From IMG/VR virus record IMGVR_UViG_3300020048_005080: a stretch of 64,000 nucleotides of DNA, one strand, 5' to 3'. The translations under genes and the position numbers were made by a program. Under the pieces are notes generated by a model that did no database searches, was not told the DNA's origin, and saw nothing but the letters and a program-made list of their open reading frames with translations. The stretch comes from a virus. Positions 14,348 to 59,738 of the stretch are shown piece by piece; position 1 is the first letter of the stretch, and the number at the start of each line of letters is the position of its first letter.

Positions 14348-15534
14348 TGTTACAAGAATTTTTAGATCTTATAGAAAGCAAGTCTCCAGGAGCACAGCCT
14401 CTTCTTATTGTTAAGAGAGGATCGCAGGCTTATGGTACTGCCATTCCCACATCAGATATTGATTATGCTGGAGTTTATATCCAACATATTGATAATATAT
14501 TGGGCTATGGCTACAAAGAGCAGATCAATGATGATAAGAATGACACTGTTTTTTATGAGATTAAAAGATTCTTAGATCTTGTATCTACAAATAACCCGAC
14601 TATTTTAGAGCTCTTAAACACACCAGAAGACTGCATTCTATATAAACACCCATTGATAGGTGAGATACTTCAGCACAGAGACAAATTCATCACTAAAAAG
14701 TGTTCTAATTCATTTGCTGGGTATGCTATTCAACAGATTAAGAAGGCAAAAGGACAGGACAAGAAACAAAACTGGGAGAAAGACAAAGTAACACGTAAAG
14801 ACGTTCTAGACTTTTGCTATGTTATAAAAGGAGAAAAATCTATGCCTTGGAAAGTTTGGAGCGAAGCCCGTTACGAAGAGAAATTTGTTGGTGTTGTAAA
14901 TTTACCTAATGCAAGGGATGTTTATGCTGTTTATTATGATACTGATTCTCACCTTTGCTTTTCTGAATCAATTCCGGAAGGTTCTAGAAATGTATATAAA
15001 AATAATCGAAAAGAATTAGGACTTGTTATGGGTCTAGGCTATAAAGGTCTAGTTAAGTCGGGTGAAGGTGCTAACGTTGCTGAATCCAACCAATTGAGAC
15101 TTTCAAGTATACCCAAAGGAGAAACCCCTATATGTAATATCATATACAATAAAGATGGTTACACTGCACATTGTAAAGATTATAGAGAATACCAAGAATG
15201 GTTAGATAATCGAAATGAACAGAGATGGACTGATGTTAAGACCCACGATCAGAAGATTGATGGTAAAAATATGATGCACTGTCGTAGACTCCTAGAAATG
15301 GCTAAAGAAATTGCTGAAGGTAAAGGCATTCTTGTAAGAAGAGAAAATGCTCAGGAGCTATTAGCAATTAGAAGAGGAGAGGTTGATCTACAAAGTCTAA
15401 TTGATAGAGCTGAAAATGACATCGTAGAAATTGATAGATTATTTAAAGAATCAGATCTTCCAGAATCGGTTGATCTTGGCTTTATTAATGATTTACTTGT
15501 TTCAGTAAGAAAAGAATTTTACGGATTAGCATAA
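14347..15534 (+). CDS. Pol-beta superfamily nucleotidyltransferase (GS-x9-DxD)
   Basis: RGSQAYGTAIPTSDIDYAGVY is the minimal nucleotidyltransferase signature. I cannot assign the subfamily, which could be RNA-repair associated, OAS-like or CD-NTase-like. Confidence 0.55.
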   Translation: MLQEFLDLIESKSPGAQPLLIVKRGSQAYGTAIPTSDIDYAGVYIQHIDNILGYGYKEQINDDKNDTVFYEIKRFLDLVSTNNPTILELLNTPEDCILYKHPLIGEILQHRDKFITKKCSNSFAGYAIQQIKKAKGQDKKQNWEKDKVTRKDVLDFCYVIKGEKSMPWKVWSEARYEEKFVGVVNLPNARDVYAVYYDTDSHLCFSESIPEGSRNVYKNNRKELGLVMGLGYKGLVKSGEGANVAESNQLRLSSIPKGETPICNIIYNKDGYTAHCKDYREYQEWLDNRNEQRWTDVKTHDQKIDGKNMMHCRRLLEMAKEIAEGKGILVRRENAQELLAIRRGEVDLQSLIDRAENDIVEIDRLFKESDLPESVDLGFINDLLVSVRKEFYGLA

Positions 15535-18815: not shown

Positions 18816-19130
18816 ATGAGTAAAAAAGTTTATCTTATCAAAGGTGCATTAGTCGATACGGAAGGAAAAAAAGAATGGATAGAATCAATAACAGCTTCTA
18901 AAGAAAGAGCAAATAAAATAAAAGCTCAATTGAATCGTTCATTAGAGGATGAGATTATCGTATCAAAAGAAATATTTGATAAGTACACTAAAGAGGGTTC
19001 AGAAGAATTAGAATGGGGTAAAATGGAATTTCACACTGATAATATGACAGATGACGAATTCGAAAAGTTCTGTATTTATAGATACGGAACTAAGATGCCA
19101 TTTAAAATAGAAGTATCAGATCTTGTCTAG
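18816..19130 (+). CDS. hypothetical protein
   Basis: 104-aa ORF. Confidence 0.45.
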   Translation: MSKKVYLIKGALVDTEGKKEWIESITASKERANKIKAQLNRSLEDEIIVSKEIFDKYTKEGSEELEWGKMEFHTDNMTDDEFEKFCIYRYGTKMPFKIEVSDLV

Positions 19131-20002
19131 ATACTTCCTTTTAAATTTCTTCTACTAACAATAGCTTTTATTCTCCTTTCAGCTTTATTAGATACACCTC
19201 TAGCCCATTCAGCGGTTCTTTCAAACGATTCCCCAATTTGTCTAAAAGATTGGGGTTCTTTATTTTCATCTAATCCGTATTTAAGTATAGTGATTTGTCT
19301 TTCCATTGGTTTGAGCTCGGATAATATACTCATTATAGATTTTTTTAAATCCTCATTTATTATATTACTGTCTGTGCTTGTTTCAGATTCTATCCAATTG
19401 ATAGGACTAAAAGAATCATCATCACTAGCATTTGTGCTACTTTCTAAAGGAATCGATCTTGGTGTATTTTTAATAGTTTCTATAGCTGATGCTGATAATT
19501 GAATATCCGTGTTCTCTTCTATTATTAATAACATTTCATCAATCGAAGGTTCTCTTCCGTGATAAGAAATAAAGCTTTCTTCCAGAGTTTGGTATTGTCT
19601 TAATTGTTGTGTGATATTAGTAGGGATTCTAACAGATCTTGAATTATTGTTCAGATACAGAAATATATTTTTTCTGATATGCCATACAGCATAACTGATA
19701 AATTTAAAACCTGTAGACGGATCGAAAGTTTCTATAGCTTCTACTAGACCTTTATTACCTTCAGATATTAGATCCTCTAAAGGATTTTGTTGTGAAGCAT
19801 AAGCTTTAGCAACAGATACAACAAATCTTAGATTTGATTTTAATATAAGCTCTTTAGCTTTAAGATCTCCATTTTTTGATTTAACTGCTAATTCAGCTTC
19901 TTTCTCAGGACTTAATATTTCATACTTACTTATTTCAGTGAAATATCTAGATATATTATCGTTAGTATTTGTAATTCTATTGATAATCTTAAATTCCCTC
20001 AT
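19127..20002 (-). CDS. RNA polymerase sigma-70 family factor (divergent)
   Basis: Region 2 is LRFVVSVAKAYASQQNPLEDLISEGNKGLVEAIETFDPSTGFKFISYAVWHIRKNI. Region 4 is the helix-turn-helix SFRQIGESFERTAEWARGVSNKAERRIK. Confidence 0.75.
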   Translation of the reverse strand: MREFKIINRITNTNDNISRYFTEISKYEILSPEKEAELAVKSKNGDLKAKELILKSNLRFVVSVAKAYASQQNPLEDLISEGNKGLVEAIETFDPSTGFKFISYAVWHIRKNIFLYLNNNSRSVRIPTNITQQLRQYQTLEESFISYHGREPSIDEMLLIIEENTDIQLSASAIETIKNTPRSIPLESSTNASDDDSFSPINWIESETSTDSNIINEDLKKSIMSILSELKPMERQITILKYGLDENKEPQSFRQIGESFERTAEWARGVSNKAERRIKAIVSRRNLKGSI

Positions 20003-20657: not shown

Positions 20658-22184
20658 ATGATAAATCCAGCTCTGCTAACAGACGGGTATAAAACTGGGC
20701 ATCACCAGCAATATCCCAAGGGAACGACATTAGTCTATTCCAATTTTACACCAAGAAGCAACAAGTACGCACCTAAGGGATGTGATATGGTAGTTTCTTT
20801 CGGACAACAATTAATCATGAAGCAAATTCACGAGAGTTTTAGAAAAGATTTCTTTGATCAACCAAAAGAAGCAGTATGTAAAGAGATTAGAGAGGAGCTC
20901 TCTTTATACCTAGGTGTAGATTATGACACAAGTCATTTCGAAGCTCTTCATGATCTTGGACATCTTCCTATTAAAGTTAAAGCATTACCAGAAGGCACAT
21001 TGGTTCCTATTAAAGTTCCAGTTTTAACTATCTACAATACAAACCCAGATTTTTACTGGATAACAAATTATTTGGAAACCCTAGTTTCTAATCTTCTTTG
21101 GAAACCAATAACCTCAGCAACTATTGCATTCCAATACAAAAGAGTACTTACAGAATGGGCTCTTAAAACAAATCAAGAAGCTAAAGAATTTGTTTACTGG
21201 CAAGGACACGATTTCTCTATGAGAGGTTTAGATTCTATTGATGCTGTAGTTTCATCTGGACTTGGTCACTTAACATCATTCTACGGTACGGATTCTCTTC
21301 CAGCAATTTACGGAGCACGTAAATTCTACGGAGCAGAAGGATTTGTTGGAGGCTCAGTTCCTGCAACAGAACACTCAGTTATGTGTGCAGGTGGTAAAGA
21401 AGACGAGATTGATACGTTCAGAAGATTACTTGAAACATATCCTAAAGGAATTCTTTCTGTAGTATCTGATACATGGGATTTATGGAAAGTGTGTACAGAA
21501 CACGTAGTCACTTTGAAAGATGAAATTCTTGCTCGTGATGGTAAATTAGTTATACGTCCTGACTCAGGAGATCCGGTTGATATTCTTTGTGGGTGGGGTG
21601 GCTTTGATCCTGAAGGTGAAAGCGAAGAAGCTAAAAATGAGCCACAAAATAAAGGAGTAATTGAATTACTTTGGGACGTATTTGGCGGAACAGTCAATGC
21701 TCAAGGTTACAAAGTACTTGACCCACACATCGGAGCTATCTATGGGGATTCAATCACAATCGACAGAGCAAATGAAATCTGCGCAAGACTAGAAGCAAAA
21801 GGATTCGCATCAACAAATGTTGTATTAGGGGTTGGTTCTTTCACTTATCAATATAACACTCGTGACACATTTGGTTTTGCAATGAAAGCAACGTATGTCG
21901 AAGTAAATAAACCAAAATTCGAAGGCGATTTCAATCCAGAAGGACGTGAGATCTTTAAAGATCCTATCACAGATGATGGAACAAAAAAATCTGCAACGGG
22001 ATTATTAAGTGTTCACAGTCATGATGGCGAATTGGTTTTAATTGACAAATGTACATGGGAAGGTGAAGAGGTTAGTTTATTACAAACAATTTACCAAGAC
22101 GGTATTTTTCACAATCCAGTTACTCTAAATGAAATCAGAGAGAAATTAGATAAAGCTATACATTTACAATTCGAATTAGCTTAA
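20658..22184 (+). CDS. nadV: nicotinamide phosphoribosyltransferase (NAMPT family)
   Basis: N-terminus MINPALLTDGYKTGHHQQYPKGT. The 508-aa length and colinear conservation are typical of NadV/NAMPT. Confidence 0.85.
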   Translation: MINPALLTDGYKTGHHQQYPKGTTLVYSNFTPRSNKYAPKGCDMVVSFGQQLIMKQIHESFRKDFFDQPKEAVCKEIREELSLYLGVDYDTSHFEALHDLGHLPIKVKALPEGTLVPIKVPVLTIYNTNPDFYWITNYLETLVSNLLWKPITSATIAFQYKRVLTEWALKTNQEAKEFVYWQGHDFSMRGLDSIDAVVSSGLGHLTSFYGTDSLPAIYGARKFYGAEGFVGGSVPATEHSVMCAGGKEDEIDTFRRLLETYPKGILSVVSDTWDLWKVCTEHVVTLKDEILARDGKLVIRPDSGDPVDILCGWGGFDPEGESEEAKNEPQNKGVIELLWDVFGGTVNAQGYKVLDPHIGAIYGDSITIDRANEICARLEAKGFASTNVVLGVGSFTYQYNTRDTFGFAMKATYVEVNKPKFEGDFNPEGREIFKDPITDDGTKKSATGLLSVHSHDGELVLIDKCTWEGEEVSLLQTIYQDGIFHNPVTLNEIREKLDKAIHLQFELA

Positions 22185-29538: not shown

Positions 29539-30327
29539 TTAAATAAGCCCTTTAATCTCTGCTAGAATCTCTCTAAATCGAGCTAATTCTTTAATCCCTT
29601 TGTGATAAGCTAGACCTTCCTCTAATAGATCATACGTTTTAACCACCGTACTTCCTTCGTTATCTTTGTTTGCTAGAACTAACACAGTGTCAGCAATAGC
29701 ACAAGATGTTTCAATATCATGTGATACGACAACCAAAGTGTTCATTTCATCTAAGTTTGATACTTTAATAAGAAGTTCAACAACTTTATCTTTCATGATT
29801 GTGTCCAATCCAGAGAATGGTTCGTCCAAAAGAATAAATTTGTTACCTGCAAGAACTTGTTGTAAAATAGACACCCTCTGCTTTTGTCCTCCTGATAAAT
29901 CACAAGGGTATTTACTAAGCTGATCTGTTAATTCAAAATGCTCAGCATATTGTTTGATTGTCTCTATTTTCTCTTTACCCTTCATACTAGTTAAAGCTAA
30001 TGAAAGATTCGTCATAATAGTTCGATGATTAAATAGGTGATAATCCTGTGGTACCACACCCATTTCTCCAGTTTTAACCGGGTGTTGATCTGCTCCAACT
30101 TTAATATCTCCCGAATTGGCTTTGTTGTATCCAGATAGAAGTTTAAATAAAGATGTTTTACCACATCCGCTTCTTCCACATATTGCTACGATTTGCCCTT
30201 GTGTCATACCAGGTCTTGTAACATTATGGATCTGCATATTGATATCTTTTAGTATTGGCTTATCGTCATAAGTGAGACTCACATTATTGACAGATAAGAT
30301 CAATTCTTCTTTTTTGTAGTCAATCAT
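29539..30327 (-). CDS. ABC transporter ATP-binding protein (NitT/TauT-like)
   Basis: Walker A is GRSGCGKTS, the ABC signature is LSGGQKQRV, and Walker B is ILLDEPFSGLD. Confidence 0.85.
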   Translation of the reverse strand: MIDYKKEELILSVNNVSLTYDDKPILKDINMQIHNVTRPGMTQGQIVAICGRSGCGKTSLFKLLSGYNKANSGDIKVGADQHPVKTGEMGVVPQDYHLFNHRTIMTNLSLALTSMKGKEKIETIKQYAEHFELTDQLSKYPCDLSGGQKQRVSILQQVLAGNKFILLDEPFSGLDTIMKDKVVELLIKVSNLDEMNTLVVVSHDIETSCAIADTVLVLANKDNEGSTVVKTYDLLEEGLAYHKGIKELARFREILAEIKGLI

Positions 30328-31136
30328 TTTCTAAGAATTTTATTGATCCATAATTTATTATAACGAGTGGTATCTGTATAAGGGAAGATCCAAACTTTCA
30401 TTAAATCGAATAAGTAATCGAATACGATACCTATAATAAGAATCACAATTAATACACCAAACACATCGTCCATTTTTAAGTACTTATTAGATTTGATCAT
30501 CATAGTACCTAAACCTCCTTCAGACATACAAATCCCTTCCACTGAAGTTATCATCATCCAAGCAATTGCAAAGTTCTGTCTAATAACTTCCAGAACTAAA
30601 TGAAGCTTACCTTTAATAACCACTTCATATAATGTCTTCCATGTGCTGAATTTAAGGGAGTAACAAAGTTCGTATTCTTTCTTAGGTATATCTCCAATGT
30701 AAGCTAAAAGAGATGTAACAAAGTATGGTATAATACCAAATAAAAGCAGTGAGATCTTAATATCGCTTCCATCCTTGATGAGTATAGTAAAGACGAATAA
30801 AAGTCCAGTATACGTCAAGAAACGAAGCTTAGAAACGAATATTGCTATTCCTTTAAAAGCTGGAATTAATGCAAGATAAACTATAGCTAAAGAAATAGTT
30901 ATAGATATCACCATTCCTTTTAGTATTAGTCCTAGTGTTGCGAAGAAGTTATCTAAGAATCCAGGTCCTGTAATAATCTTCCATGATGAATTTAAAATTC
31001 CTGAAGGTTTAGGAAGTAACTCATTTCCGTTTACCTGTGCTATAAATAGAAATATAGCTATTTGAATTATCCCGATGATAAGCATAGTTCTTACACTTAC
31101 GCTCTCTAGGAATCTTGGTGAGAATATTTTCTTCAT
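30324..31136 (-). CDS. ABC transporter permease
   Basis: Six predicted TM helices. It is overlap-coupled to the ATPase. Confidence 0.7.
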   Translation of the reverse strand: MKKIFSPRFLESVSVRTMLIIGIIQIAIFLFIAQVNGNELLPKPSGILNSSWKIITGPGFLDNFFATLGLILKGMVISITISLAIVYLALIPAFKGIAIFVSKLRFLTYTGLLFVFTILIKDGSDIKISLLLFGIIPYFVTSLLAYIGDIPKKEYELCYSLKFSTWKTLYEVVIKGKLHLVLEVIRQNFAIAWMMITSVEGICMSEGGLGTMMIKSNKYLKMDDVFGVLIVILIIGIVFDYLFDLMKVWIFPYTDTTRYNKLWINKILRK

Positions 31137-31151
31137 CTTATTTATATAATA

Positions 31152-31190
31152 AGGGGCTACTCAGTTGAGAATAGCCCCTTTTATTGTTTT
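31152..31190 (-). terminator. intrinsic terminator-like hairpin
   Basis: AGGGGCTA-12 nt loop-TAGCCCCT followed by TTTATTGTTTTT. Confidence 0.5.
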
Positions 31191-31192
31191 TA

Positions 31193-32968
31193 TTATTGTC
31201 CTAAGATTGAAATCTCTACTCTTCGGTTTTGTGCTCTTCCTGCTGCATTTGAATTGCTAGCAATTGGATTTGAAGATCCGTATCCTTTAGATTGTAGACG
31301 TGTAGAAGTCATACCTTTTTGCTTTAAGTAATTAAGTACTGATAAAGCTCTTTGTTCAGATAAAGGAAGGTTGATAGACTCACTACCTACATTATCTGTA
31401 TAACCTCCGATAAGTACTTTAGTACCATCTGCTGTTACTGCGTCTTGAAAAATCTCATCTAATACACTCATAGAAGATGCAGAGATTTGAGCAGATCCTG
31501 TGACGAACTCGATGTGATAAGATTTATTACCAATCTTATTTGTCATCTTAGTGTTCGTATAGTCTGTCAAATTGATCTTACCTTGTAATAGATCTGGGTT
31601 GTTTGCTACAACTGACATTAGGATCGATTTATCAAATGCTTTAGAGTAATCTAAGTATGATGGTAAATCGCTAGAGTAATACTTAGACTGTAATGTACCG
31701 AATGTATTATAGATTGCTCTGTAGATGTCCGTGTTGTCAGTTTTACCTTCTACATAAATACCTAACATATTCGCCATATCACCCAAGTTAAATACCATCG
31801 AACCTCCTAAGTGTGTGTCATCGTCAGTTTTAATACCGTTGTAGTATGTGTACCAATATTGACCATTTTGTTCGTCGTAAATTTTAGCATTCAATCCGCA
31901 AGCAAATCTTTTAGCATCATCGAATGTACGGATTTGATCCCCTGCAATAGCAGTGCATTTAGTGATTTCCTCTGCTGCTGTACGGTGATCGTTTAACCAC
32001 TTACGACATGTGATAGTGATGTTAGGCATAATTGAAGAATATTCTTTAGTAGAGATAATAGTTACTCCGCCACGTCCATTCTTAGCATTAACGTCACCAG
32101 GTGTCCAAGTAGCAACTAAGTCCGCTCTTACTGTAGTGTCACGTCCAATAGTTTTACCGTCTTTCATGATCTTACGTGTTTCTCTATATCCTGAGTTGTA
32201 TTTAACTACAGCATCTAAGAAATCTTTACAGTACATGAAGTTAAGAGCATCAGGATCATATGTTGTTTCGTCTACGTTAACTTTTACACCATTGTCTCCT
32301 GCTAATTTAAGAGCTAAGTCTAAGTCTCCATCCATACGATAACCAACGATTGTTGCTCCTTTTAGATTTTGCTTATTGTTCTTGTATTTGATATCTCCAA
32401 TAACTTGGTCTTCTCCATAAGATTTACCAGTTGTTAAGAAGGCTACCGGCTGATATTCAGGACCTAAATCTTTCACTGCATTTGAAATACCTGTAATATA
32501 AGAAGGAATTCCTGATCCCATAAAGGTGATGAATACACCTGGTGTGTTAGGATTGCTTTTATACTCCTTACAGAATTTAACTAATTCAGCGCAAGATTGA
32601 GCACAGTCGTCTTGACGGATAAGGCTGATATCCAAACCTGAGCGATCAAATAAAGATCCTTTTGTTGTTTGTTTACCTCCATTTGCATAAGCAATACCGT
32701 TTTGTGATTGCCAAGCCATGATGTACCAATTAACTTTAGTACCTCCGTTGTTTGCAGGTTCAGCTGAAGGAAAGTTCAACTTGATAGCTGCTTTTCCAGA
32801 TAATGAAGCTTCGGGAGCGTCTGGAATTGCCACTTGTCCGAATGTTTTTGAGTCTTCTACTTCGTGTGGTCTGTTGTCCCACCATAACACTTTAAGTGCG
32901 AAGATTACTGCTACAGCGAATAGTCCAATAACGACTTTACCGCTTGTTTTTAACTTTACATTTGCCAT
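31193..32968 (-). CDS. periplasmic substrate-binding-like protein fused to a C-terminal OmpA/MotB peptidoglycan-binding domain
   Basis: N-terminal signal anchor and an SBP-like body. The C-terminal OmpA signature is DNVGSESINLPLSEQRALSVLNYL...RRVEISI. Confidence 0.7.
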   Translation of the reverse strand: MANVKLKTSGKVVIGLFAVAVIFALKVLWWDNRPHEVEDSKTFGQVAIPDAPEASLSGKAAIKLNFPSAEPANNGGTKVNWYIMAWQSQNGIAYANGGKQTTKGSLFDRSGLDISLIRQDDCAQSCAELVKFCKEYKSNPNTPGVFITFMGSGIPSYITGISNAVKDLGPEYQPVAFLTTGKSYGEDQVIGDIKYKNNKQNLKGATIVGYRMDGDLDLALKLAGDNGVKVNVDETTYDPDALNFMYCKDFLDAVVKYNSGYRETRKIMKDGKTIGRDTTVRADLVATWTPGDVNAKNGRGGVTIISTKEYSSIMPNITITCRKWLNDHRTAAEEITKCTAIAGDQIRTFDDAKRFACGLNAKIYDEQNGQYWYTYYNGIKTDDDTHLGGSMVFNLGDMANMLGIYVEGKTDNTDIYRAIYNTFGTLQSKYYSSDLPSYLDYSKAFDKSILMSVVANNPDLLQGKINLTDYTNTKMTNKIGNKSYHIEFVTGSAQISASSMSVLDEIFQDAVTADGTKVLIGGYTDNVGSESINLPLSEQRALSVLNYLKQKGMTSTRLQSKGYGSSNPIASNSNAAGRAQNRRVEISILGQ

Positions 32969-36034: not shown

Positions 36035-36685
36035 TTATATATCTGTTGATTCAATAAGTGTATAAGAGAATTTATTTCCGTGAATTTTTGCTGCTTTTTT
36101 ACAAATCGCTAGAAAAGCATCAAAATCTTTTACTCTTTTAAATACCTGACATCCTTCGCTCCAGTTTTCTACCCATGTAGAATCCGTACCTGCTTTATGA
36201 ATATTAATACCGAACATACCTGTGTCAGTTACTTTCTCTTCAAAAAGTAAATCTTTGTTAGCATCTCGCCAAACTGTAACATTACCGTTTCTTTGGCAAA
36301 GAGCTTCATATTTACCTTGATGTTTATCGATAGACCATACTCCTCTGTATTGTCCAGGAACTAATCTTGCAACACCTTTATTGTTATGAAATTCCATAAC
36401 TCCTTTTTTACCTGGGTCACATGTAGCATTCCAAGCATAATATTGCCAATTTTTACTTTCATCTTTAAATGAAATAGTTAGCGTGTCATCAAAAACGTTA
36501 GTAACTTTATCTGCTATTGACGGAGCGTTATTTCTAACGCCAACAATATTAACATCATAAGTTTTGTTTGATGTGTCTTCAAACCAAGCATAGCCTTTTG
36601 CTTTAACTGCTTTTTCTATCTGTTCTCTTGTATAACTCATTTTTTTGTTTTTATTTTGTAATTTTTTTATATTAATCAAAACCAA
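36035..36685 (-). CDS. L,D-transpeptidase (YkuD)-like cell-wall enzyme
   Basis: GINIHKAGTDSTWVENWSEGCQVFKR resembles the YkuD catalytic motif IHG...SHGC(I/V)R. I consider this tentative. Confidence 0.4.
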   Translation of the reverse strand: MVLINIKKLQNKNKKMSYTREQIEKAVKAKGYAWFEDTSNKTYDVNIVGVRNNAPSIADKVTNVFDDTLTISFKDESKNWQYYAWNATCDPGKKGVMEFHNNKGVARLVPGQYRGVWSIDKHQGKYEALCQRNGNVTVWRDANKDLLFEEKVTDTGMFGINIHKAGTDSTWVENWSEGCQVFKRVKDFDAFLAICKKAAKIHGNKFSYTLIESTDI

Positions 36686-37827
36686 TTTTTAGGATTCCAT
36701 TTTGATTTTTTAGCATCTTCTGCAGCTTTATTTAAAGCATCTTGTGTTTCTCTAGCTACTCTTTCTGTTTCTCTTTGTGTTGCTTCAGCTGCTTCTCTAG
36801 CTACTCTTTCTGTTTCTCTTTGTGCTGCTTCAGCTGCTTCTTGTGTTTCTTTAGCTACTCTTTCTGTTTCTTTTTGAGCAGCAGCTGCTTGTTCTGCTAA
36901 GACTCTATCAGCTTCATCAGCTAAACGTTTAGCTTCTGCTGCTTGTTCATCAGCAAATTTTTGAGCTGCTTCAGCTTGTTCTTTAGCAATTCTTTCCGCT
37001 TCACCGTCAGCAATTGCATTACCTAAGTCAATAGCAGGATTCAAATCTAGATTAACATTAACATCGGCGTCAAGTCCAACTAGTAAAGCAGCTTCTCCGC
37101 TAATCCCTACGCTTACTTCTCCATCGTTAAAAGTTCCATGTGCTTCACCTTCAGCGCCAACTTGAACGCCAATACTAGCTCCAGCTGAACCACTTGCCTC
37201 TGCACCTCCAATTGGAGTATTGACACCAACAGTTCCACCAGCTTCAACACCAACACCGGCACCGGCCATAGCTCCACCGCCAACATCCACACCATGTTCG
37301 CCTACAGTAGCGTGTCCTTCTACTCCAGCGTGTGCTTCCGCGTAAGCACCTGCGTGTCCTTCAGCATCTGCTTCAACCTTAACCTCACCTAGTGGAGTAT
37401 CAAGTCCTGCTTCAGCATGAGCTTCTGCACTTGCTTCAACTTCAACTCTAGCGCTAACTTCTGCACCTGCTTCTATTTTAGCATCCGATCCGTCCCATCC
37501 CGCTTCTGCGTGTGCTTCTGCACTTGCCTCTGCACTTGCGTGTGCTTCCGCCCGAGCATCAACCTCTGCACCAATACTTACTCCCCCGCCTAAATCTTGG
37601 CTTGCGTGAGCTTCTGCATTTGCATCTACATTTACTTCAGCACTTACCTCTGCTTCCGCACTTGCATGAGCCATAGTACCATCGATACCTGCTTCTGCAC
37701 TTACATGAGCTTCTGCTGAAGCATCATAACTTGCATCTGAACTTGCTCCTAGATTTTCATTTCCTGTTTGTGTTGATACATTCCCATTTAAAGATGCGCT
37801 TGCTCCTATTTCTACTTCTTCGTTCAT
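36676..37827 (-). CDS. Ala/Glu/His/Gly-rich repeat protein with C-terminal coiled-coil repeats
   Basis: AEAHASAEA-type repeats, and a C-terminal RETERVA(R/K)E repeat matching about 42-bp DNA tandem repeats at 36720-36900. There is a local GC-rich island. Confidence 0.55.
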   Translation of the reverse strand: MNEEVEIGASASLNGNVSTQTGNENLGASSDASYDASAEAHVSAEAGIDGTMAHASAEAEVSAEVNVDANAEAHASQDLGGGVSIGAEVDARAEAHASAEASAEAHAEAGWDGSDAKIEAGAEVSARVEVEASAEAHAEAGLDTPLGEVKVEADAEGHAGAYAEAHAGVEGHATVGEHGVDVGGGAMAGAGVGVEAGGTVGVNTPIGGAEASGSAGASIGVQVGAEGEAHGTFNDGEVSVGISGEAALLVGLDADVNVNLDLNPAIDLGNAIADGEAERIAKEQAEAAQKFADEQAAEAKRLADEADRVLAEQAAAAQKETERVAKETQEAAEAAQRETERVAREAAEATQRETERVARETQDALNKAAEDAKKSKWNPKNWF

Positions 37828-38174: not shown

Positions 38175-38987
38175 TTATTTAAGCAGAGCGTAATATTCTT
38201 TGAAATGCTTAATTCTATCAGGAAGACCAATAGTTCCACCATTAACTCTTTTAGTTACCGCAGTCACTGTTGCATCATCAGCACCTTTATCACAGATAGA
38301 CCAAAGTTTATTTGAATTGAAGAAGAATGCAGCTGAAGCTAAAGGATATTTAGTCGCAACCAAATCTGGGTTTGCAACAGTATCTTCTCCTATGAATTTA
38401 GCGAAGTTAGTGTAATTTGATTTTCCAGTTAATTGAATATAACCTCTACCACGAAACTTGAATCCTTCTTTAGAAGATTCATCGCCATTACCCATACGGG
38501 AAGCATAAACTCTAGCAGCAATCTTTTCTGGCTGACGAGCATAAGATTCGTTAAGATTTCCAGGGAAATATTTACCAAATATTTTCTTAAGTCCGTCTGC
38601 TGAATAATTTAAGTTTTCTGAAACTGCTTTAAATCCTCCAGACTCGTGTCCGCATTGAGCAAGAAAATGAGCTAATCTAAGAACGTTAGTGATTCCAAAT
38701 TTAGCTGCAGTATCTGGGATTTGTGCAATTACAGAATCAGGAACGTGTCCTTTTAGTTTTTCTAATTTGAAAGGAGATGAAGGAACTGCTAAATCTGATT
38801 CTAGCAATATTCCCATTTTTTTAAGTGTAACCGGACCAGCTACACCATCGTCTTTTAGACCGTTAGATTTTTGCCAAGCTTTTAATGAGGTATCAACTTG
38901 AGCGTCAAAAGTACCGTTAATTGGAAGTCCTAAGAAATTTTGGAGTTTTTCTACTTCTACTCCTACAGAGCCTAATTTAAGTATCAT
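38175..38987 (-). CDS. endolysin: PG_binding_1 domain plus GH19 muramidase/chitinase-like catalytic domain
   Basis: The N-terminus LKLGSVGVEVEKLQNFLG...DGVAGPVTLKKMG is a PG-binding domain. The catalytic region has FKFRGRGYIQLTGKSNYTNF and AAFFFN. Confidence 0.85.
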   Translation of the reverse strand: MILKLGSVGVEVEKLQNFLGLPINGTFDAQVDTSLKAWQKSNGLKDDGVAGPVTLKKMGILLESDLAVPSSPFKLEKLKGHVPDSVIAQIPDTAAKFGITNVLRLAHFLAQCGHESGGFKAVSENLNYSADGLKKIFGKYFPGNLNESYARQPEKIAARVYASRMGNGDESSKEGFKFRGRGYIQLTGKSNYTNFAKFIGEDTVANPDLVATKYPLASAAFFFNSNKLWSICDKGADDATVTAVTKRVNGGTIGLPDRIKHFKEYYALLK

Positions 38988-39468: not shown

Positions 39469-39624
39469 ATAATCTTTGATAAGTATTATATGTTAAATAA
39501 CGAGTAAAATTTCATTATAAGACTATCAGTTAATATTAATATGGCGAAATATTATGGATTGTAAGATAGATATAATAATAAAATCACACACGGCTTAGGA
39601 CCGTGATGTTACGCAAGTATCATT

Positions 39625-39679: not shown

Positions 39680-40255
39680 CTAATTGTTTTTATTCTCGCT
39701 GGCGTATTTAACACCCATGATAGTACCAACTATTGAGAAAGCATTAGTCAGAAGAATACCAAACATATTACTCCATGTAGATCCTATGATCTGTGTGTCC
39801 TTTCCTGTCATCATTGCAATTCCGTACATAATAGTCGTAATAACACCAACACTTATAATAACTAATAAAGCAACTTTAACAATTGTTCCTATAAGTTCTG
39901 TCTGTGATTTTTTTTGCATTACGTCTAAATCGTTTAATGCAATATCTTTTGCTTCTAGAGCTTCATTTTTAGAATCCTCTGCTTCATGTAATGCAATCTT
40001 AAGCTCCTCGTTTATTCTTGTATTCTCCTCTTCAGAAGCTTGGAGCTCACGATTTCGTTCTTGTACCTGTTTAGTTATTTCAAGTCTTTTCCTCCTACCG
40101 TCTTTATCCTTCTCTATTGATACGGAGAGATAATTTTTAAAATCATTATCTCCATCCTCTGCCTCAAGGATCTTTAGTATATTACCTTCTAAGCTTACCC
40201 TTTTTGTTTTTTGTATTTCAAGTAAGCAATCCCTGACTTCTTTACTTACTTTCAT
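39680..40255 (-). CDS. coiled-coil protein with C-terminal TM helices
   Basis: 191-aa ORF. Confidence 0.5.
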   Translation of the reverse strand: MKVSKEVRDCLLEIQKTKRVSLEGNILKILEAEDGDNDFKNYLSVSIEKDKDGRRKRLEITKQVQERNRELQASEEENTRINEELKIALHEAEDSKNEALEAKDIALNDLDVMQKKSQTELIGTIVKVALLVIISVGVITTIMYGIAMMTGKDTQIIGSTWSNMFGILLTNAFSIVGTIMGVKYASENKNN

Positions 40256-40686
40256 TACTTATAAATCTTAAATGGATTTGTTCTATTTTTGTATCCTGGA
40301 AAATCATTTTTGAAATCCTCTAATCTTGGTTCAATATCATCTGATTTTATAATCCAAAATTGAGCACCTGCTTTAACTGCTTTAGCTTGTTCTTCTGGTT
40401 CATTAGAGGAAGATATTATTCCAATAACAACATTATTACCATACTCAAAATTAATCTTACGGATTAATTCTATACCATCATAGGAAGATCCAATTATGTT
40501 TAGGTCTACAAATACACATTCAGGTTTTCCGTCTGGATTTTTTTGCCATTCTGCAAAAAGTCTAGCAGCTTCATCTGAGCTATCAAGACTTTCTAAAGAA
40601 AGTGAAATATCAAGAAGACTGCAAGCATCTTCAAATACAAGATGAAATAGACTTTCGTCATCTACTAATAAAATTGAATCAATCAT
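40255..40686 (-). CDS. response regulator receiver (REC-only) protein
   Basis: ILLVDDE and FVDLNI are the phospho-acceptor context. The protein is CheY-like in size. Confidence 0.7.
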   Translation of the reverse strand: MIDSILLVDDESLFHLVFEDACSLLDISLSLESLDSSDEAARLFAEWQKNPDGKPECVFVDLNIIGSSYDGIELIRKINFEYGNNVVIGIISSSNEPEEQAKAVKAGAQFWIIKSDDIEPRLEDFKNDFPGYKNRTNPFKIYK

Positions 40687-42814
40687 TTTTTAAGTTTATT
40701 TTTATTTGACTTCCTTCAACTGGAAGTTTATCACAAGAAACACTAAACCCATGTTCTTCTAATATTGCTATACATATATTTAATCCCAGACCAGTGCCAG
40801 ACTCTTTCTGTCCTTCCTTACGAGTATATGGTTGCGAAAGTAATTTGAACTCTTCTGAGCTTAATCCTCTTCCGTTATCCTCTACATATAATGTATCATC
40901 TATTCTATAGATCTTTACAATCTTATTATTGCTATCATTATATTTTAGGCCATTTCTGATTAAATTATCCAACGCTGTACAGAATAGTGCTTCGTTAACA
41001 CTTAATTCTCCTAAATCTGATAGATCAACCTGAGGTCTATATGCAGTTGCTGATAGATAATCCTCAAGAATATTTTTCAAATTACATTCTTCTCTATTAA
41101 GTACTACGTCTTTCTTTACAAGATTTGTAAACTCGTAAACTCCTTTATAAACTTTTTGTGTGTGACGAAGTCCTTCTTTAATCATTTTAATAGGGGCTTC
41201 AATCTTAAGTTCCTTTATTTGCTCCTCAGATAATCTTCTATCTAAAGAGCTTAGTCCTCTAGGCATGTATGTGTTAATGCCACTGTGCATATCATGTCTA
41301 AGTATTTTAGCAGCATGCTCAAGATACGTATTTTTCTTTTCTAGTTCTTTCTGTTGATTATAACTTTCAGTAATATCGGTAGCAATTTTCATCACTCGAT
41401 ATGGTTTTTCATCAGGTCCTATGATAGGATTGTATGTTGCTTGGAGATAAATTAATGCCCCATTTTTTCTTCTTCTTGTAACTTCGCCTCTGAAGAATTT
41501 TCCGTCGCTTAGTGATTTCCAAAAATCTTGATATTCTTTGGTATTCTTTTCTGAATTTTCTATAAATATGCTATGGTGTTTTCCTATAATTTCTTCTTGT
41601 GAATATCCTAATATGCTCAAAAATGAATCATTTGCAAATTTTATATTACCATCTAAATCAAATTCAATAACAGCATTTGATCTATTAATAGCATTCATTC
41701 TATTGGATATTTCAACCTCTTTTCTTTTTAACTCAGTTACATCTTGGCGTATAGAAGAGAATCCACAAAGTTTATTATTTTCGTCAAATCTAGCTTTAAT
41801 AAAAGTATCTACATAATATAGACTTCCGTCTTTAGCTCTATTTGTACAAACAGCATTCCATATTTTTTTTTCGGCTACAACTGTTTTGTACATATCACTC
41901 CAAAACTCTTTAGGATGTGTACCTGAGTTTACTATATTATGATCCCTTCCTATAACTTCATCTAAAGAATATCCAGAAACATCAGTGAATCTTTGATTTA
42001 CATAAGTTATTTTTCCTTTCTCGTCAGCAACTGAGATAATAGAAGAAGCATCAAGAAATTTTTCATTCTCAATTATTTCGTGAGATAATTTATTAGATTC
42101 TTTAACTGAATACCCAAACGAGTATAATGAAGAAAGCATCTGTGCAAAATCTACCTCGTCTTTATCCCATATTCTTGGTGAAAGACTTTCAATACATATA
42201 ACTCCTATTACTTCCCCTTTATACCAGATAGGAACATCGAGCATTGATTTTACACCTAATGGTTTAAGATATCCTTCTAAAAAACAAGAAGTTGCTGGAT
42301 GTGTTTCTGCATTATCTGCAATGATTATTGGATTATCTTTTATTGCTTCAAAATATGGAAAAAAGTCTTTCTCAAATAGCTCTATATCTTTATAAAAATT
42401 ATCCTCCGATCTAATATAAAGATTCTGACAGATAATAGACGTACGATCGTTATTATAAAGCCAAAAAGAACATCTATCAGATTCTATAGTATCTGAAACT
42501 TCTTTAGAAAGAATAGCAGATCCTGCTTCTATATTACCAGAAAAAAATACCTCATTATGAGATTGTCTGATTAAAGAGTCCGATAATTTCTTATTGTATT
42601 TTAATTTCTTTTTTTCCTGTCTGCTTTTATTTAAAAATGTTCTTCCTATAAAATATGAAGGGACACAGAAAGAAATAAAACATAGATACTCGATTAAATT
42701 GTAAAAATCTGAGTCTTTAACTATTCCGAATGTGATAGATGTTTTTATCACAAAGAAAAATATCATAATAAGAATAGCGGACGCCGTAGAAAATAATAAT
42801 CCAAATTTTTTCAC
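40679..42814 (-). CDS. sensor histidine kinase with TM, GAF-like and two PAS domains
   Basis: PAS region ITYVNQRFTDVSGYSLDEVIGRDH. H box RHDMHSGI. N box LIRNGLKYN. G boxes DNGRGL and GTGLGLNI. Confidence 0.85.
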   Translation of the reverse strand: MKKFGLLFSTASAILIMIFFFVIKTSITFGIVKDSDFYNLIEYLCFISFCVPSYFIGRTFLNKSRQEKKKLKYNKKLSDSLIRQSHNEVFFSGNIEAGSAILSKEVSDTIESDRCSFWLYNNDRTSIICQNLYIRSEDNFYKDIELFEKDFFPYFEAIKDNPIIIADNAETHPATSCFLEGYLKPLGVKSMLDVPIWYKGEVIGVICIESLSPRIWDKDEVDFAQMLSSLYSFGYSVKESNKLSHEIIENEKFLDASSIISVADEKGKITYVNQRFTDVSGYSLDEVIGRDHNIVNSGTHPKEFWSDMYKTVVAEKKIWNAVCTNRAKDGSLYYVDTFIKARFDENNKLCGFSSIRQDVTELKRKEVEISNRMNAINRSNAVIEFDLDGNIKFANDSFLSILGYSQEEIIGKHHSIFIENSEKNTKEYQDFWKSLSDGKFFRGEVTRRRKNGALIYLQATYNPIIGPDEKPYRVMKIATDITESYNQQKELEKKNTYLEHAAKILRHDMHSGINTYMPRGLSSLDRRLSEEQIKELKIEAPIKMIKEGLRHTQKVYKGVYEFTNLVKKDVVLNREECNLKNILEDYLSATAYRPQVDLSDLGELSVNEALFCTALDNLIRNGLKYNDSNNKIVKIYRIDDTLYVEDNGRGLSSEEFKLLSQPYTRKEGQKESGTGLGLNICIAILEEHGFSVSCDKLPVEGSQIKINLKND

Positions 42815-42870: not shown

Positions 42871-43194
42871 CTATTTATAGTAGATCTTCTCTGGATATTT
42901 ACCAAATACAAATTCAGTGACTGAACACAGCCAAATTGTCGAAGGACCATGCCAAGCATCATTGTTGTAATAACCCTCACTAGACTCGTTATGATCATAG
43001 GAAAGTATCTTAGAATCTTCGAATGGTTCGTCTGCAAAGGTAACAAAACAATAGTCGGATTCGCCAGATAATATCTCCAAAAGAATATCTGCTCCTAACA
43101 CCATTTCAAGTTCATCTTTTTCCCCTTCCCATTCTGGAAGATCCACGAACCATCTATTATCTTCTTCCTTGTAAAATTTGAATCTTCTTATCAT
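42871..43194 (-). CDS. hypothetical protein
   Basis: 107-aa ORF. Confidence 0.45.
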   Translation of the reverse strand: MIRRFKFYKEEDNRWFVDLPEWEGEKDELEMVLGADILLEILSGESDYCFVTFADEPFEDSKILSYDHNESSEGYYNNDAWHGPSTIWLCSVTEFVFGKYPEKIYYK

Positions 43195-43346
43195 AGCTTA
43201 GGCTTAATAAAATTAATTCCAATTAAGAATATCATAACTAAATTAGTAGTTAGGTGAAGACCCCTTCCGTTGTATTTATAGCAAAGAATATTTCCAATGG
43301 CTAAGGCAATTAGTAAAATAATTGGAAAGATATATTTTTTTATCAT
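43191..43346 (-). CDS. small membrane protein (51 aa, below the track threshold)
   Basis: MIKKYIFPIILLIALAIG... with ATGA overlaps on both sides. Confidence 0.25.
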   Translation of the reverse strand: MIKKYIFPIILLIALAIGNILCYKYNGRGLHLTTNLVMIFLIGINFIKPKL

Positions 43347-44204: not shown

Positions 44205-44645
44205 TTACTTTTCTTTTTTATATCGACAGGATTTGCATAGATTATAAAGCCACCCTTTACCCATAGTTCTTACGTTCTTATTGCTTCCGCATCTTTCGCA
44301 AGTTCTGTAGCATTCGTCCTCCGCTTTATCTATTATTTCCTCTATTTCCGGTCCAAAATGTCCATAAATTCTAAGTGATGCAAACTTATCCTTAATATCA
44401 GTAACCATTTGACCTTTAGTTAGCTTCTTACGCACTTTATCCCAGAATCTATACTTAACCCAAACAACAGAATTTCCAGTAGCTAAATAGTGGATCTTAC
44501 GCTTAATAAACATGGGTATCCATCTTGGCCACATTTCTTTTTCTATATCAACTATAGCTTTCTCAACTATTTTAACCCACCCCTCAGGAACAGAAGGATA
44601 AGAATACCCTACATGTTTATATTTTTCAGATATTTTCATTTTCAT
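44205..44645 (-). CDS. zinc-ribbon protein
   Basis: CYRTCERCGS...CKSCRYKK contains two CxxC pairs. Confidence 0.45.
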   Translation of the reverse strand: MKMKISEKYKHVGYSYPSVPEGWVKIVEKAIVDIEKEMWPRWIPMFIKRKIHYLATGNSVVWVKYRFWDKVRKKLTKGQMVTDIKDKFASLRIYGHFGPEIEEIIDKAEDECYRTCERCGSNKNVRTMGKGWLYNLCKSCRYKKEK

Positions 44646-45009
44646 TATTTATTTCTGGATCTTCTAGATCCTCCTCTGGCTTATCTTCGCTCAGATATCC
44701 TATAGATCTTAACCACACCGCCAAAGATACACCTGCGGATAATTTCTCAAAGAATTCCGCTTTATAACCTATCAATAAAAATATTAGATATAATATAGCA
44801 AAAATCCCTATTATTCCTAATCCAGGTTCCCAGATATATTTATCTTCCTTCAATTTATTAAAATTGAATATAATAATAAAGAACCCTACAATATAGACTA
44901 GGGTTAATTCAGGAATTGGAATATTAAATAGAACAGATAATTCTTCTGCAATACCAATTCCGAAGAAAATAGCTAATAGGTGTTTAACCTTAGAATCGTT
45001 TAAGTACAT
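44626..45009 (-). CDS. membrane protein
   Basis: Three TM helices. Confidence 0.4.
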   Translation of the reverse strand: MYLNDSKVKHLLAIFFGIGIAEELSVLFNIPIPELTLVYIVGFFIIIFNFNKLKEDKYIWEPGLGIIGIFAILYLIFLLIGYKAEFFEKLSAGVSLAVWLRSIGYLSEDKPEEDLEDPEINNENENI

Positions 45010-51980: not shown

Positions 51981-52961
51981 TTATTTGTCTAATATCCAAG
52001 AAAAGATAAGTGGAGCAACAATAGTTGCATCTGACTCGACAATAAATTTAGGTGTGTTAGTATCCAATTTACCCCAAGTGATCTTTTCATTTGGTACTGC
52101 TCCCGAGTAAGATCCATATGATGTTGTAGAATCTGAAATTTGACAGAAATAAGCCCAGAATGGTACATCTTCCCATTCAAGATCTTGGTACATCATCGGA
52201 ACAACACATATTGGAAAGTCCCCTGCAATACCTCCTCCGATTTGGAAGAATCCTATTCCAGGCTCAGAACAATTGTTTCTGTACCATTCACTAAGGTAAA
52301 CCATATATTCAATACCATTTCTCACCGTATTAGGCTCCAATTCTCCTTTTATAACATAAGAAGCAAAGATATTACCTAATGTGGAATCCTCCCATCCAGG
52401 TACAACCATTGGAAGATTTCTTTCCGCTGCAGCAATCATCCAGGAGTCTTTAGGATCAATCTCATAATATTGCGTAAGAATTCCGCTATTAATTAGCATG
52501 TACATGAATTCATGAGGAAAGTATTTTTTACCCTCGGCTTCCGCTTCTTTCCATAGATCATAAATATAAGATTGTAATCTTCTAAAAGCTTCTTCCTCAG
52601 GAATACAAGTGTCAGTGACTCTATTTAAACCTTGATCTAACAATTCTCTTTCTTGCTCTGGTGTAAGATCCCTATAATTAGGTATTCTTTTATAATGAGA
52701 ATGTGCTACAAGATTCATTAAATCCTCTTCCAAGTTAGCTCCAGTACAAGATATAATATCAACTTTACCAGCTCTAATCATTTCAGCTAAAGAAATACCA
52801 ATCTCTGCTGTACTCATTGCACCAGCAAGAGAAATTAGCATCTTGCCACCTTTATCTATATGTGTCTCGTAACCAATTGCTGCATCCTTTAATGCTGCAG
52901 AATTAAAATGCTTATAATTTCTATTAATAAACATTGATATAGGACCTTTCTTCTTTACCAT
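51981..52961 (-). CDS. deoxyhypusine synthase-like / homospermidine synthase-like enzyme
   Basis: KMLISLAGAMSTAEIG, DIISCTGANLEEDL and EKITWGKLD track the DHS family, which is NAD-dependent. Confidence 0.65.
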   Translation of the reverse strand: MVKKKGPISMFINRNYKHFNSAALKDAAIGYETHIDKGGKMLISLAGAMSTAEIGISLAEMIRAGKVDIISCTGANLEEDLMNLVAHSHYKRIPNYRDLTPEQERELLDQGLNRVTDTCIPEEEAFRRLQSYIYDLWKEAEAEGKKYFPHEFMYMLINSGILTQYYEIDPKDSWMIAAAERNLPMVVPGWEDSTLGNIFASYVIKGELEPNTVRNGIEYMVYLSEWYRNNCSEPGIGFFQIGGGIAGDFPICVVPMMYQDLEWEDVPFWAYFCQISDSTTSYGSYSGAVPNEKITWGKLDTNTPKFIVESDATIVAPLIFSWILDK

Positions 52962-58871: not shown

Positions 58872-59738
58872 TTACCCCAAGTATGATCTTAGTAATCTGC
58901 TTCTTGTAGAAACTCTAAGTTTCTTAATTCCCTTCTCCTTTATCTGTCTTGCACGTTCTCTAGATATCTCTAATTTCTGTCCAATTTCGTCTAATGATCT
59001 TGGACAAGACTGATCGATACCATAGAACATTTTAATCACATTTTTAGAGCGTATGTCTAGTGTATTAAGACTTCTTTCTATTTCTGTTCTTAAAGATTCG
59101 TGAATTAATAAATTGTCTGCAGATGGAGAATCGGGATTAATTAAAACCTCAATCATTGCTGAAGCTTCAGAATCCCCGCCTAACGGTGCATCAAAGGATG
59201 TGTGTTTTAAAGATGTCTTGACAGTTTCTGAAATTTTATATTCAGGAATATCCAAAGCTTCTGATATCTCTTCGTGAGTTGGTATTCTTTCTAGATCCTG
59301 CTCTAATTTTCCTATAGTTCTATTAATTTTACTAAGAACCCCAACCTGATTTAAAGGTATACGAATAACCCTAGATTTTTCAGAAAGAGCTTCTAATATA
59401 CTCTGTCTAATCCACCAAACTGCATACGATATAAATTTGAATCCTCTTGTTTCGTCAAATTTTCTAGCTGCTTTTATTAGACCTAGATTACCCTCGTTTA
59501 TAAGATCTATTAGTGGTAATCCTTGATTCTGGTATTGCTTAGCAACAGATACTACGAATCTTAGATTTGCTTTAGTTAATTTATCTAAAGCAGCTTGATC
59601 TCCTTCTCTAATTCTTCTTGCTAATCTAGTTTCTTCCTCTATTGTAATCAGAGCCTCCTTAGAAATATCACTAAGATACTTTTCCAATGATTTATCTGCA
59701 CGGTTAGTAATAGATTGGGTAATCTTAAGTTGTCTCAT
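58872..59738 (-). CDS. rpoD: RNA polymerase sigma factor, near copy of the Bacteroidota primary sigma A
   Basis: MRQLKITQSITNR, LTKANLRFVVSVAKQYQNQGLPLIDLINEGNLGLIKAARKFDETRGFKFISYAVWWIRQSI, and the terminal LRSYLG. The short 288-aa form is characteristic of Bacteroidota. Confidence 0.9.
   Translation of the reverse strand: MRQLKITQSITNRADKSLEKYLSDISKEALITIEEETRLARRIREGDQAALDKLTKANLRFVVSVAKQYQNQGLPLIDLINEGNLGLIKAARKFDETRGFKFISYAVWWIRQSILEALSEKSRVIRIPLNQVGVLSKINRTIGKLEQDLERIPTHEEISEALDIPEYKISETVKTSLKHTSFDAPLGGDSEASAMIEVLINPDSPSADNLLIHESLRTEIERSLNTLDIRSKNVIKMFYGIDQSCPRSLDEIGQKLEISRERARQIKEKGIKKLRVSTRSRLLRSYLG

Follow-up and report, generated by a model that had tools for sequence, protein, structure and literature searches.

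Bacteriophages are known to eavesdrop on their hosts by means of single receptors or peptide systems. In the literature that we searched, which included surveys of jumbo phages and held no description of the module reported here, a complete kinase-to-receiver pair is apparently undescribed for bacteriophages. The closest case is that of phage phiCDHM1, whose agr locus (AgrB, AgrD, and AgrC) provides a phage histidine kinase that has been proposed to serve as sensory input and that comes without a response regulator (PMC3901668). Here, we describe a three-gene unit in a 64,000-nucleotide stretch of viral DNA (IMG/VR virus record IMGVR_UViG_3300020048_005080; the whole stretch analysed is referred to as the window below), which encodes a sensor histidine kinase, a stand-alone receiver (REC), and a third protein with a membrane hairpin, designated TM3. 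While the AgrC of phiCDHM1 is recently host-derived, the present kinase is unrelated to AgrC and belongs to a deep family whose members come mainly from viral contigs.

Among described cellular proteins, MmoS of Methylococcus capsulatus, NifL of Azotobacter vinelandii, and Aer of Escherichia coli are closest in sequence to the first PAS domain (PAS1) of the phage kinase, in which their pocket residues are kept. In MmoS, a flavin-type PAS domain is followed by a second PAS domain that has neither the pocket residues nor the flavin, and the phage kinase shows a parallel arrangement. Compared to these three proteins, the phage kinase has in addition a membrane hairpin and a GAF domain, carries a divergent H-box, and is encoded with partners that consist of a receiver domain only and of a membrane-bound coiled coil. 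With regard to the receiver, kinases encoded beside an output-less receiver are part of general knowledge (CheA-CheY, Cph1-Rcp1, and DivJ/PleC-DivK), and the phage pair, with a receiver of ~140 amino acids, is arranged likewise; it differs from such pairs in that the module includes no Hpt domain or second receiver, so that a phosphorelay is not evident, and in the C-terminal extension of REC. The smallest kinases of the phage family, in which a two-helix hairpin with no extracellular domain precedes the catalytic core, share the intramembrane-sensing architecture that is generally known from LiaF-LiaS-LiaR and BceS, and a small membrane protein is encoded beside them; in contrast to the Lia system, the sequence of TM3 does not resemble LiaF, the kinase gene is followed by that of the receiver and then by that of the membrane protein, and the phage regulator lacks a DNA-binding domain. 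Finally, TM3 can be likened to the holin/antiholin timers that are generally known from phages such as T4 (T/RI), as it is small, membrane-bound, and short and polar at its C-terminus, and is often encoded beside an endolysin that has no signal peptide; it differs from holins in its cytoplasmic coiled coil of ~115 amino acids and shows no similarity to any holin family. The unit consists of the following features:

40679-42814, minus strand: sensor histidine kinase, 711 amino acids, GTG start at 42814 (open reading frame plus Pfam domains)
40255-40686, minus strand: stand-alone receiver (REC), 143 amino acids (Response_reg match)
39680-40255, minus strand: third gene, TM3, 191 amino acids, coiled coil plus C-terminal two-helix membrane hairpin
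39589-39605, minus strand: terminator-like hairpin inside the 212-nucleotide gap downstream of TM3

Both open reading frames of the kinase/receiver pair that an initial annotation of the window had claimed at 40255-42814 were found there on the minus strand, and the coupling by overlap that it described is present, as the ATG of REC lies inside the last kinase codons (ATGATTGA; 8-nucleotide overlap). The start codon of TM3 lies on the stop codon of REC (TAATG overlap), and the two-gene account, which was right about the pair, was incomplete in that it overlooked this third coupled gene. The gap 3' of TM3 holds a second inverted repeat besides the terminator-like hairpin, which is likely the 3' end of the three-gene unit. 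Ratios of nonsynonymous to synonymous substitution (dN/dS) were 0.08-0.18 for the kinase, 0.02-0.10 for REC, and 0.06-0.15 for TM3. As read from gene overlaps, gene order in relatives, and these ratios, the kinase, REC, and TM3 are coupled in translation and inherited together, and purifying selection acts on all three. The kinase itself is composed, from its N-terminus, of a transmembrane (TM) hairpin, GAF, PAS1, PAS2, and the two parts of the catalytic core:

42641-42811, minus strand: N-terminal membrane hairpin, residues ~2-58, with no periplasmic domain (hydropathy and model)
42095-42532, minus strand: GAF domain, residues ~95-240, with invariant C129, C177, and C207
41705-42046, minus strand: PAS1, residues ~257-370, flavin-type (Aer/MmoS/NifL-like)
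41366-41674, minus strand: PAS2, residues ~381-483, same subfamily as PAS1
41090-41359, minus strand: dimerisation/histidine-phosphotransfer (DHp) region with the divergent H-box RHDMHSGIN; H507 codon at 41294-41296
40682-41089, minus strand: catalytic, ATP-binding (CA) domain, which carries the N, G1, and G2 boxes (HATPase_c, 48.3 bits)

With Pfam models, a GAF domain was recognized at residues 102-230 (57.7 bits) and PAS domains at ~257-370 and at 381-483 (up to 86 bits); HATPase_c scored 48.3 bits at residues 611-709, the cut-off being 26.4. The monomer AlphaFold model placed N-terminal helices at residues 2-28 and 36-85, in agreement with a membrane anchor predicted by hydropathy, and had a pLDDT of 85-94 over GAF, PAS1, and PAS2; between them, Pfam, hydropathy, and AlphaFold hence bear out the membrane anchor, the GAF-like region, and the two PAS domains that the initial annotation had assigned to the kinase. 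The check by domain models that it had proposed was answered in part, with PAS and HATPase_c found and HisKA not found.

This last result bears on the catalytic core. Pfam HisKA (PF00512) matched no part of the kinase at E ≤ 0.01, and precomputed HisKA matches among the homologue clusters of the kinase numbered none. In the DHp region, where a dimeric four-helix bundle would be expected, the pLDDT of the AlphaFold model dropped below 50 over residues 494-521 and 535-574. The missing Pfam match and the low model confidence count against the composite explanation given below. As the Pfam model is silent, the H-box was established instead by conservation within the family and by profile comparison with structures in PDB. 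H507 is invariant in all 106 family representatives that cover the H-box, down to ~24% identity, and D508 is present in 104 of them. Two other His residues nearby, H500 and H510, can be exchanged, the latter for R or K, which is what the canonical H-E/D-L-R/K has, and the most distant family members grade into an ordinary H-box of the SHDLKSPL type. A profile of the C-terminal 226 residues aligns with HK853, QseC, EnvZ, and CpxA from DHp helix alpha2 through CA. The N box DNLIRNGLKYNDS, the G1 box DNGRG, and the G2 box GTGLGL are invariant in the family, and an alignment of 15 homologues showed KKNTYLEHAAKILRHDMHSGINTY as well as the N, G1, and G2 boxes to be nearly invariant and the sensor domains to be far less conserved. 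An exhaustive search with the core profile among 1.84 billion representatives yielded 93 proteins at E ≤ 1e-30. On the strength of these alignments, the H-box is real but divergent, and the protein is a membrane-anchored class I histidine kinase with all catalytic motifs present; the previously claimed intact H, N, and G boxes are upheld outright for N, G1, and G2 and, for the H-box, by conservation and without a Pfam HisKA match.

The missing HisKA match can also be read in another way, namely that the protein has kept a kinase fold and acts by protein binding with no phosphotransfer, as full-length NifL is the best fold match of the whole kinase (E = 5e-24) and NifL regulates NifA by binding and not by phosphorylation. 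Conservation of the H-box His-Asp, of the N, G1, and G2 boxes, and of the acidic pocket of REC over deep divergence is, however, hard to account for without phosphoryl chemistry, and we regard a NifL-like non-kinase as very improbable.

REC scored 36.4 bits on Response_reg (cut-off 30.2) in a match that spans residues 5-115 out of 143, with no other domain found in the protein; the C-terminal extension of ~27 amino acids is conserved. Residues D9, D10, D61, S92-94 (SSS), and K114 are invariant in 17 diverse homologues. The nearest solved relative is the single-domain regulator 3ILH of Cytophaga hutchinsonii, and D61 (codon 40504-40506) aligns with its phospho-acceptor position. REC is the most conserved of the three proteins; across IMG/VR loci its identity was 72-96%, compared to 46-90% for the kinase, and in relatives from metagenome-assembled genomes (MAGs) it fell to 64%. 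Loss of the conserved His or Asp in relatives was looked for, and the counts were 106 of 106 for H507, 104 of 106 for D508, and 17 of 17 for D61 of REC. Gene coupling and co-conservation point to phosphotransfer from the kinase to REC, and with the catalytic motifs and the acceptor pocket intact, the complete pair that had been proposed for this phage genome is apparently functional; a functional phage-encoded phosphotransfer pair is, to judge from sequence, highly probable.

As REC has no effector or DNA-binding domain, its output must run via protein binding or phosphate flow. Of the roles proposed previously for the kinase and for its REC-only partner, protein-protein signalling, as opposed to DNA binding, is supported, and neither a simple phospho-sink nor titration of a host response regulator is favoured, because the DHp region and the phage REC are the most conserved parts and always travel together and because some phages place a further kinase with the same type of DHp before the same REC. 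A rival reading is a decoy for host manipulation, in which the kinase would phosphorylate or dephosphorylate host response regulators or REC would drain phosphate from host kinases, such that the phage would rewire a two-component pathway of its host and would have no private circuit. The lack of an output domain in REC fits such a decoy, cross-talk with related host systems is conceivable given a cellular pair in a Bacteroidota MAG with a 64%-identical receiver, and the AgrC kinase of phiCDHM1, which has no regulator of its own, was proposed to signal through a host regulator (PMC3901668). The present phage, by contrast, always brings both partners, and high conservation of DHp and REC is what would be expected of a cognate, insulated pair; in addition, the H-box is unusually divergent, the module occurs in contigs of 39-66% GC and hence in very different hosts, which argues against tuning to one pathway, and a conserved third phage protein accompanies the pair. 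We thus consider the decoy unlikely and continue with a cognate pair. A two-component-like anti-phage defence system was also considered as a candidate and rejected, as the defence models of PADLOC-DB (cf. Detocs) gave no match for the kinase, REC, TM3, or two neighbouring genes.

With regard to the sensor region, the best PDB matches of PAS1 were MmoS (3EWK, 97 bits), Aer (8DIK, 60 bits), and NifL (2GJ3, 57 bits); these flavin-binding PAS structures outranked every LOV and other PAS structure, and the NCBIfam NifL model scored 140 bits over PAS1. Residues of the Aer flavin pocket have been reported as H53, M69, W70, N85, and R115, with equivalents in MmoS (PMC9668731). These positions correspond to H292, M308, Y309, N325, and R356 of PAS1, all invariant, with Y309 an aromatic residue replacing the Trp of Aer. 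PAS2 lacks the flavin-pocket Asn and Arg, having R447 and A478 at the positions of Aer N85 and R115, and is missing from one branch of the family (L012-L022). Given these likenesses, PAS1 is probably a redox sensor. As flavin-PAS and GAF modules are missing from most members of the kinase family, redox sensing would be limited to the sub-lineage of the window and would not extend to the whole family; for this sub-lineage, the pocket residues incline us, by a modest degree, to accept flavin-based redox sensing.

The initial annotation had suggested that the kinase could sense host physiology or light. The first part of this suggestion is favoured by the likeness of PAS1 to flavin-PAS domains. 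Light sensing of the LOV type was rejected, because the motif with the adduct-forming cysteine (GXNCRFLQ) is replaced in PAS1 by GRDHNIVNSG, with DHNIVN at the site of the LOV cysteine; LOV structures scored only 24-34 bits against PAS1. A second route to light sensing, weakly possible, is through GAF, which would bind a bilin via C177 and make the kinase a phage photoreceptor. The GAF profile matched 3O5Y, the GAF domain of PtsP, and GAF domains of cyanobacteriochromes and phytochromes (miRFP670nano, 6P58, 2M7U, 4FOF, 3VV4, 2K2N, 2LB5, and 4BWI), and the invariant C177 aligns with a Cys of miRFP670nano, 6P58, and 2LB5, which we take to be the chromophore-attachment site of bilin-binding GAF domains; plant and bacterial phytochromes were also among the top fold matches of the kinase. 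On the other hand, 3O5Y and PtsP (3CI6), which are not obviously bilin-binding, scored as well or better, such that the GAF domain, as placed by its profile, is equidistant from ordinary and bilin-binding GAF domains. The canonical motif of bilin-binding GAF domains is Cys followed by His (CH), whereas the residue after C177 is an invariant Phe, and Pfam found no PHY or PAS_2 domain in the kinase. Moreover, the phytochrome fold matches are explained by a common module order (GAF, PAS-PAS, and a kinase-like module), a probable heterotrophic host may not make bilins, and GAF is missing from most of the kinase family. A bilin photoreceptor is thus very unlikely, and redox sensing by PAS1 is the reading of the sensor region that we retain.

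The third protein, TM3, begins with a segment that is conserved, continues as a coiled-coil stalk in which insertions cause differences in length, and ends in a very conserved two-helix hairpin. Its structural model is made up of helices only, with a continuous helix (residues 35-150) that runs into TM1 and is followed by TM2 (residues 154-189). Searches of Pfam, NCBIfam, PHROG, and PADLOC-DB, including holin families, gave no family match, and 7,283 homologue clusters at 90% identity were found in metagenomes, none with a Pfam domain. TM3 is the likeliest candidate for a partner of the receiver or of the kinase; that it is the direct partner of the receiver is somewhat less probable than not. 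With respect to a holin, TM3 has two TM helices and is encoded beside hydrolase genes in many loci, among them 22 of 42 long TM3-anchored ones, and it matched no holin family. TM3 as the only possible holin was rejected, as genes within 5 kb encode two other TM proteins, one with three TM helices and an acidic tail and one of 51 amino acids.

The composition of the unit is stable across relatives. Homologues of the kinase that share its architecture form more than 120 clusters, with identities of 62-95%, and the order kinase-REC-TM3 was found in all 24 kinase-anchored loci with enough sequence. TM3 relatives are encoded in at least 462 IMG/VR loci; among the 79 of these that were newly fetched, a kinase core of the family lies upstream in 65 of 67 and REC in 73 of 75, and TM3 stands alone in one variant only (L069 and L100). 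The DHp-CA core is common to kinases of ~295 to 718 amino acids, which differ in what precedes it, and some loci encode a second kinase with the same H-box and DHp region between the first kinase and REC, which has a signal peptide, a periplasmic domain of ~230 amino acids, and one TM helix:

Kinases of ~295 amino acids: bare TM hairpin plus DHp-CA
Kinases of ~410 amino acids: TM hairpin plus one PAS domain
Kinases of 474 amino acids: soluble, PAS-PAS
Kinases of 524 amino acids: GAF-PAS, no TM segment
Kinases of 534 amino acids: TM hairpin plus flavin-PAS plus PAS
Kinases of 711-718 amino acids: full form, as in the window
Second kinase: 12357-13796 in L012, 1992-3368 in L022, and 6287-7510 in L026; also in L045 and L093

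From these comparisons, sensor modules appear to be swapped and duplicated while DHp-CA, REC, and TM3 are constant, consistent with different inputs that feed one conserved output. A secreted protein of 201-245 amino acids precedes the second kinase in L012 and L026, an extra four-TM protein of 162 amino acids with no family match is encoded between REC and TM3 in L075 (5501-5989) and 12 similar loci, and a 357-amino-acid membrane protein is encoded 3' of TM3 in the sub-lineage typified by L075.

A nucleotide search of 50,697 deposited phages with the 8-kb region gave no match; a protein search of deposited phages gave only PAS fragments for the kinase and no matches for REC and TM3. The three-gene module is thus not in any of the 50,697 deposited phage records, which leaves it with no cultured relative, though it is widespread in uncultivated phages. 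Relatives of the unit were found on IMG/VR contigs of up to 430 kb as well as on contigs of 591 kb (L025) and 617 kb (L024). The latter two encode DnaK, DnaJ, GrpE, T4 gp13, and a T4-type RNA ligase along with dense small open reading frames, and are candidate megaphage genomes of ~0.6 Mb; they also encode PrkA, a tRNA-synthetase-like protein, and adenylosuccinate synthetase. A comparison by shared contig names between IMG/VR contigs with the three genes and those with a T4 gp13-like neck gene found no overlap, the assemblies being too fragmented. In cellular genomes, a scan of one genome per species (185,579 species) with two H-box motifs gave eight clear matches and one weak match (26%), all on MAG contigs from six phyla and with GC contents of 39-66%, a scatter that is typical of mis-binned viral contigs. 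One relative differs from this pattern: on a 967-kb Bacteroidetes MAG contig (L032; VGMW01000001.1, 3709-7109), a PAS-rich kinase with the same H-box, possibly in two open reading frames, accompanies a receiver 64% identical to that of the window, with no TM3 and with neighbours that encode cytochrome c, TetR, and an ABC1-kinase. A cellular relative of the kinase/REC pair hence exists, and L032 may have been a donor or a recipient of horizontally transferred genes; the three-gene set has so far been found only in phage-type contexts.

These data also bear on whether the genes belong to a phage at all, or are host genes, whether because the contig is bacterial or mis-binned or because they flank a prophage. 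The 64-kb window holds no clear capsid, portal, or terminase gene, the relative in L032 stands in a cellular-looking context, and the module is in no deposited phage, all as expected if the genes were cellular. Against this stand the phage-type genes and orphan open reading frames that lie densely on both sides of the three-gene set, the hundreds of IMG/VR contigs that carry the module, the T4 gp13 and T4-type RNA ligase genes on the same 617-kb contig as the module, the scatter of the eight clear MAG matches over six phyla, and the lack of TM3 in the cellular relative. A non-phage origin is accordingly very improbable in our judgment, and we treat the unit as phage-encoded. The window as a whole encodes an endolysin, a second lysozyme-like protein, a Dda-like helicase, an RNA ligase, two sigma factors, and ClpP besides many orphan open reading frames, and genes neighbouring the unit recur with 99-100% identity on contigs of 62 and 69 kb from metagenomes. 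A host within Bacteroidota is probable; the clues to it are weak and consist of a GC content of 32% and best helicase matches in Flavobacterium phages, together with a similarity in lifestyle to freshwater 'moraphages' (PMC12619734).

Taken together, we consider it fairly probable that the locus is a self-contained, three-gene signalling operon encoded by an uncultivated large phage. Under this composite explanation, the cytoplasmic sensor region would read the state of the infected cell, with PAS1 most likely binding flavin adenine dinucleotide and, like Aer, MmoS, and NifL, reporting on redox or respiration, and with GAF binding a second ligand. This input would determine whether autophosphorylation of H507 or phosphatase activity prevails, the phosphoryl group would pass to D61 of the receiver, and phosphorylated REC would bind a protein, with TM3 as the best candidate, to give a membrane-associated output. 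The most specific guess for this output is a late envelope event, e.g., lysis timing, that would be tuned to the energy status of the host; this guess is made because the module adjoins peptidoglycan hydrolase genes in many lineages. In the window, these genes are:

38175-38987, minus strand: endolysin (PG_binding_1 plus GH19); context, with a possible functional link
36035-36685, minus strand: gene designated g216, putative peptidoglycan-hydrolase domain

The product of g216 had no match in Pfam or PDB; it matches a PHROG endolysin family and is fused to the same PG_binding_1 module in L005-L007, and thus probably represents a peptidoglycan-hydrolase domain that lacks annotation. In nearly all kinase-anchored IMG/VR loci with enough flank (L001-L023), a hydrolase of the GH19 or g216 type directly adjoins the three-gene set, in rearranged lineages up- or downstream of the set and at varied distances, and in L025 a Glyco_hydro_108 gene lies ~3 kb downstream of TM3. 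Two further small genes, both a few kb upstream of the set, encode holin-like candidates: one at 44626-45009 (minus strand; 127 amino acids, with three TM helices and a C-terminal tail that is very acidic), which is conserved in related loci, and one at 43191-43346 (minus strand; 51 amino acids, single TM helix). Just downstream of the lysis genes, the open reading frame at 36676-37827 (minus strand) falls within the one GC-rich patch that the window has (GC 0.40) and encodes a 383-amino-acid, Ala/Glu/Gly-rich, low-complexity protein with AEAHASAEA-like repeats and no family match.

A number of points count against the composite explanation, and most of all against its lysis step. Phosphorylation, flavin binding, and any contact between REC and TM3 are all things that we infer, and TM3 could equally be an accessory of kinase input, as LiaF is for LiaS, and not an output. 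Flavin-PAS and GAF modules, as described above, are shared by a minority of the kinase family. A hydrolase lies within 1.5 kb in only 22 of 42 long TM3-anchored loci, and no homologue of the GH19 or g216 genes of the window was found near the three-gene set in L024, L025, or the MAG loci of higher GC. The 212-nucleotide gap with its hairpins implies that the lysis genes of the window are probably on a separate transcript, accessory genes commonly collect beside lysis cassettes so that adjacency is weak functional evidence, and with the holin-like protein of 44626-45009 nearby, TM3 need not be a lysis protein. Control of lysis timing by the three-gene module is thus doubtful. Similarly improbable is a phage 'decision' circuit of a new kind in which interchangeable kinases would signal to a dedicated REC and on to the coiled-coil stalk of TM3, and thereby to a late envelope event, most plausibly lysis timing; its inputs would be the redox or energy status of the cytoplasm via flavin-PAS, membrane state via the TM hairpin, and periplasmic cues via the second kinase.

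Several other genes of the window are of separate interest. Genes for a nicotinamide adenine dinucleotide (NAD) salvage set (nicotinamide phosphoribosyltransferase [NAMPT], phosphoribosyl pyrophosphate [PRPP] synthetase, and a nucleotidyltransferase) were found at 20658-22184 (plus strand), 8980-9900 (minus strand), and 14347-15534 (plus strand); similar sets have been reported in other jumbo phages (PMC11662467). Two sigma-70-like factors, encoded at 19127-20002 and 58872-59738 (both minus strand), matched phrog_351 with E = 1e-45 and 2e-65, and the phage probably redirects transcription with these sigma factors of its own. An open reading frame of 326 amino acids at 51981-52961 (minus strand) matched deoxyhypusine synthase (Pfam DS, 137 bits), which is unexpected in a bacteriophage. 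Finally, consecutive genes at 29539-32968 (minus strand) for an ABC transporter ATPase, a permease, and a 591-amino-acid protein that carries an OmpA domain at its C-terminus form an envelope-directed accessory cluster.

The class I kinase, the CheY-like receiver, and the flavin-PAS domain are textbook parts; what is unusual is their phage carrier, the private pair with a phage-specific third protein, and the wide spread of the module in uncultivated phages. TM3 itself represents a large family of membrane proteins that is at present without annotation. The module is not a one-off pick-up from a host and looks like standard equipment of a large group of uncultivated phages. If the flavin-PAS reading is true, the kinase would offer a testable route by which a phage measures the respiration or energy status of its host during infection, and if the 'decision' circuit were true, large uncultivated phages would widely possess a lysis clock that is strictly viral and runs on phosphorylation.

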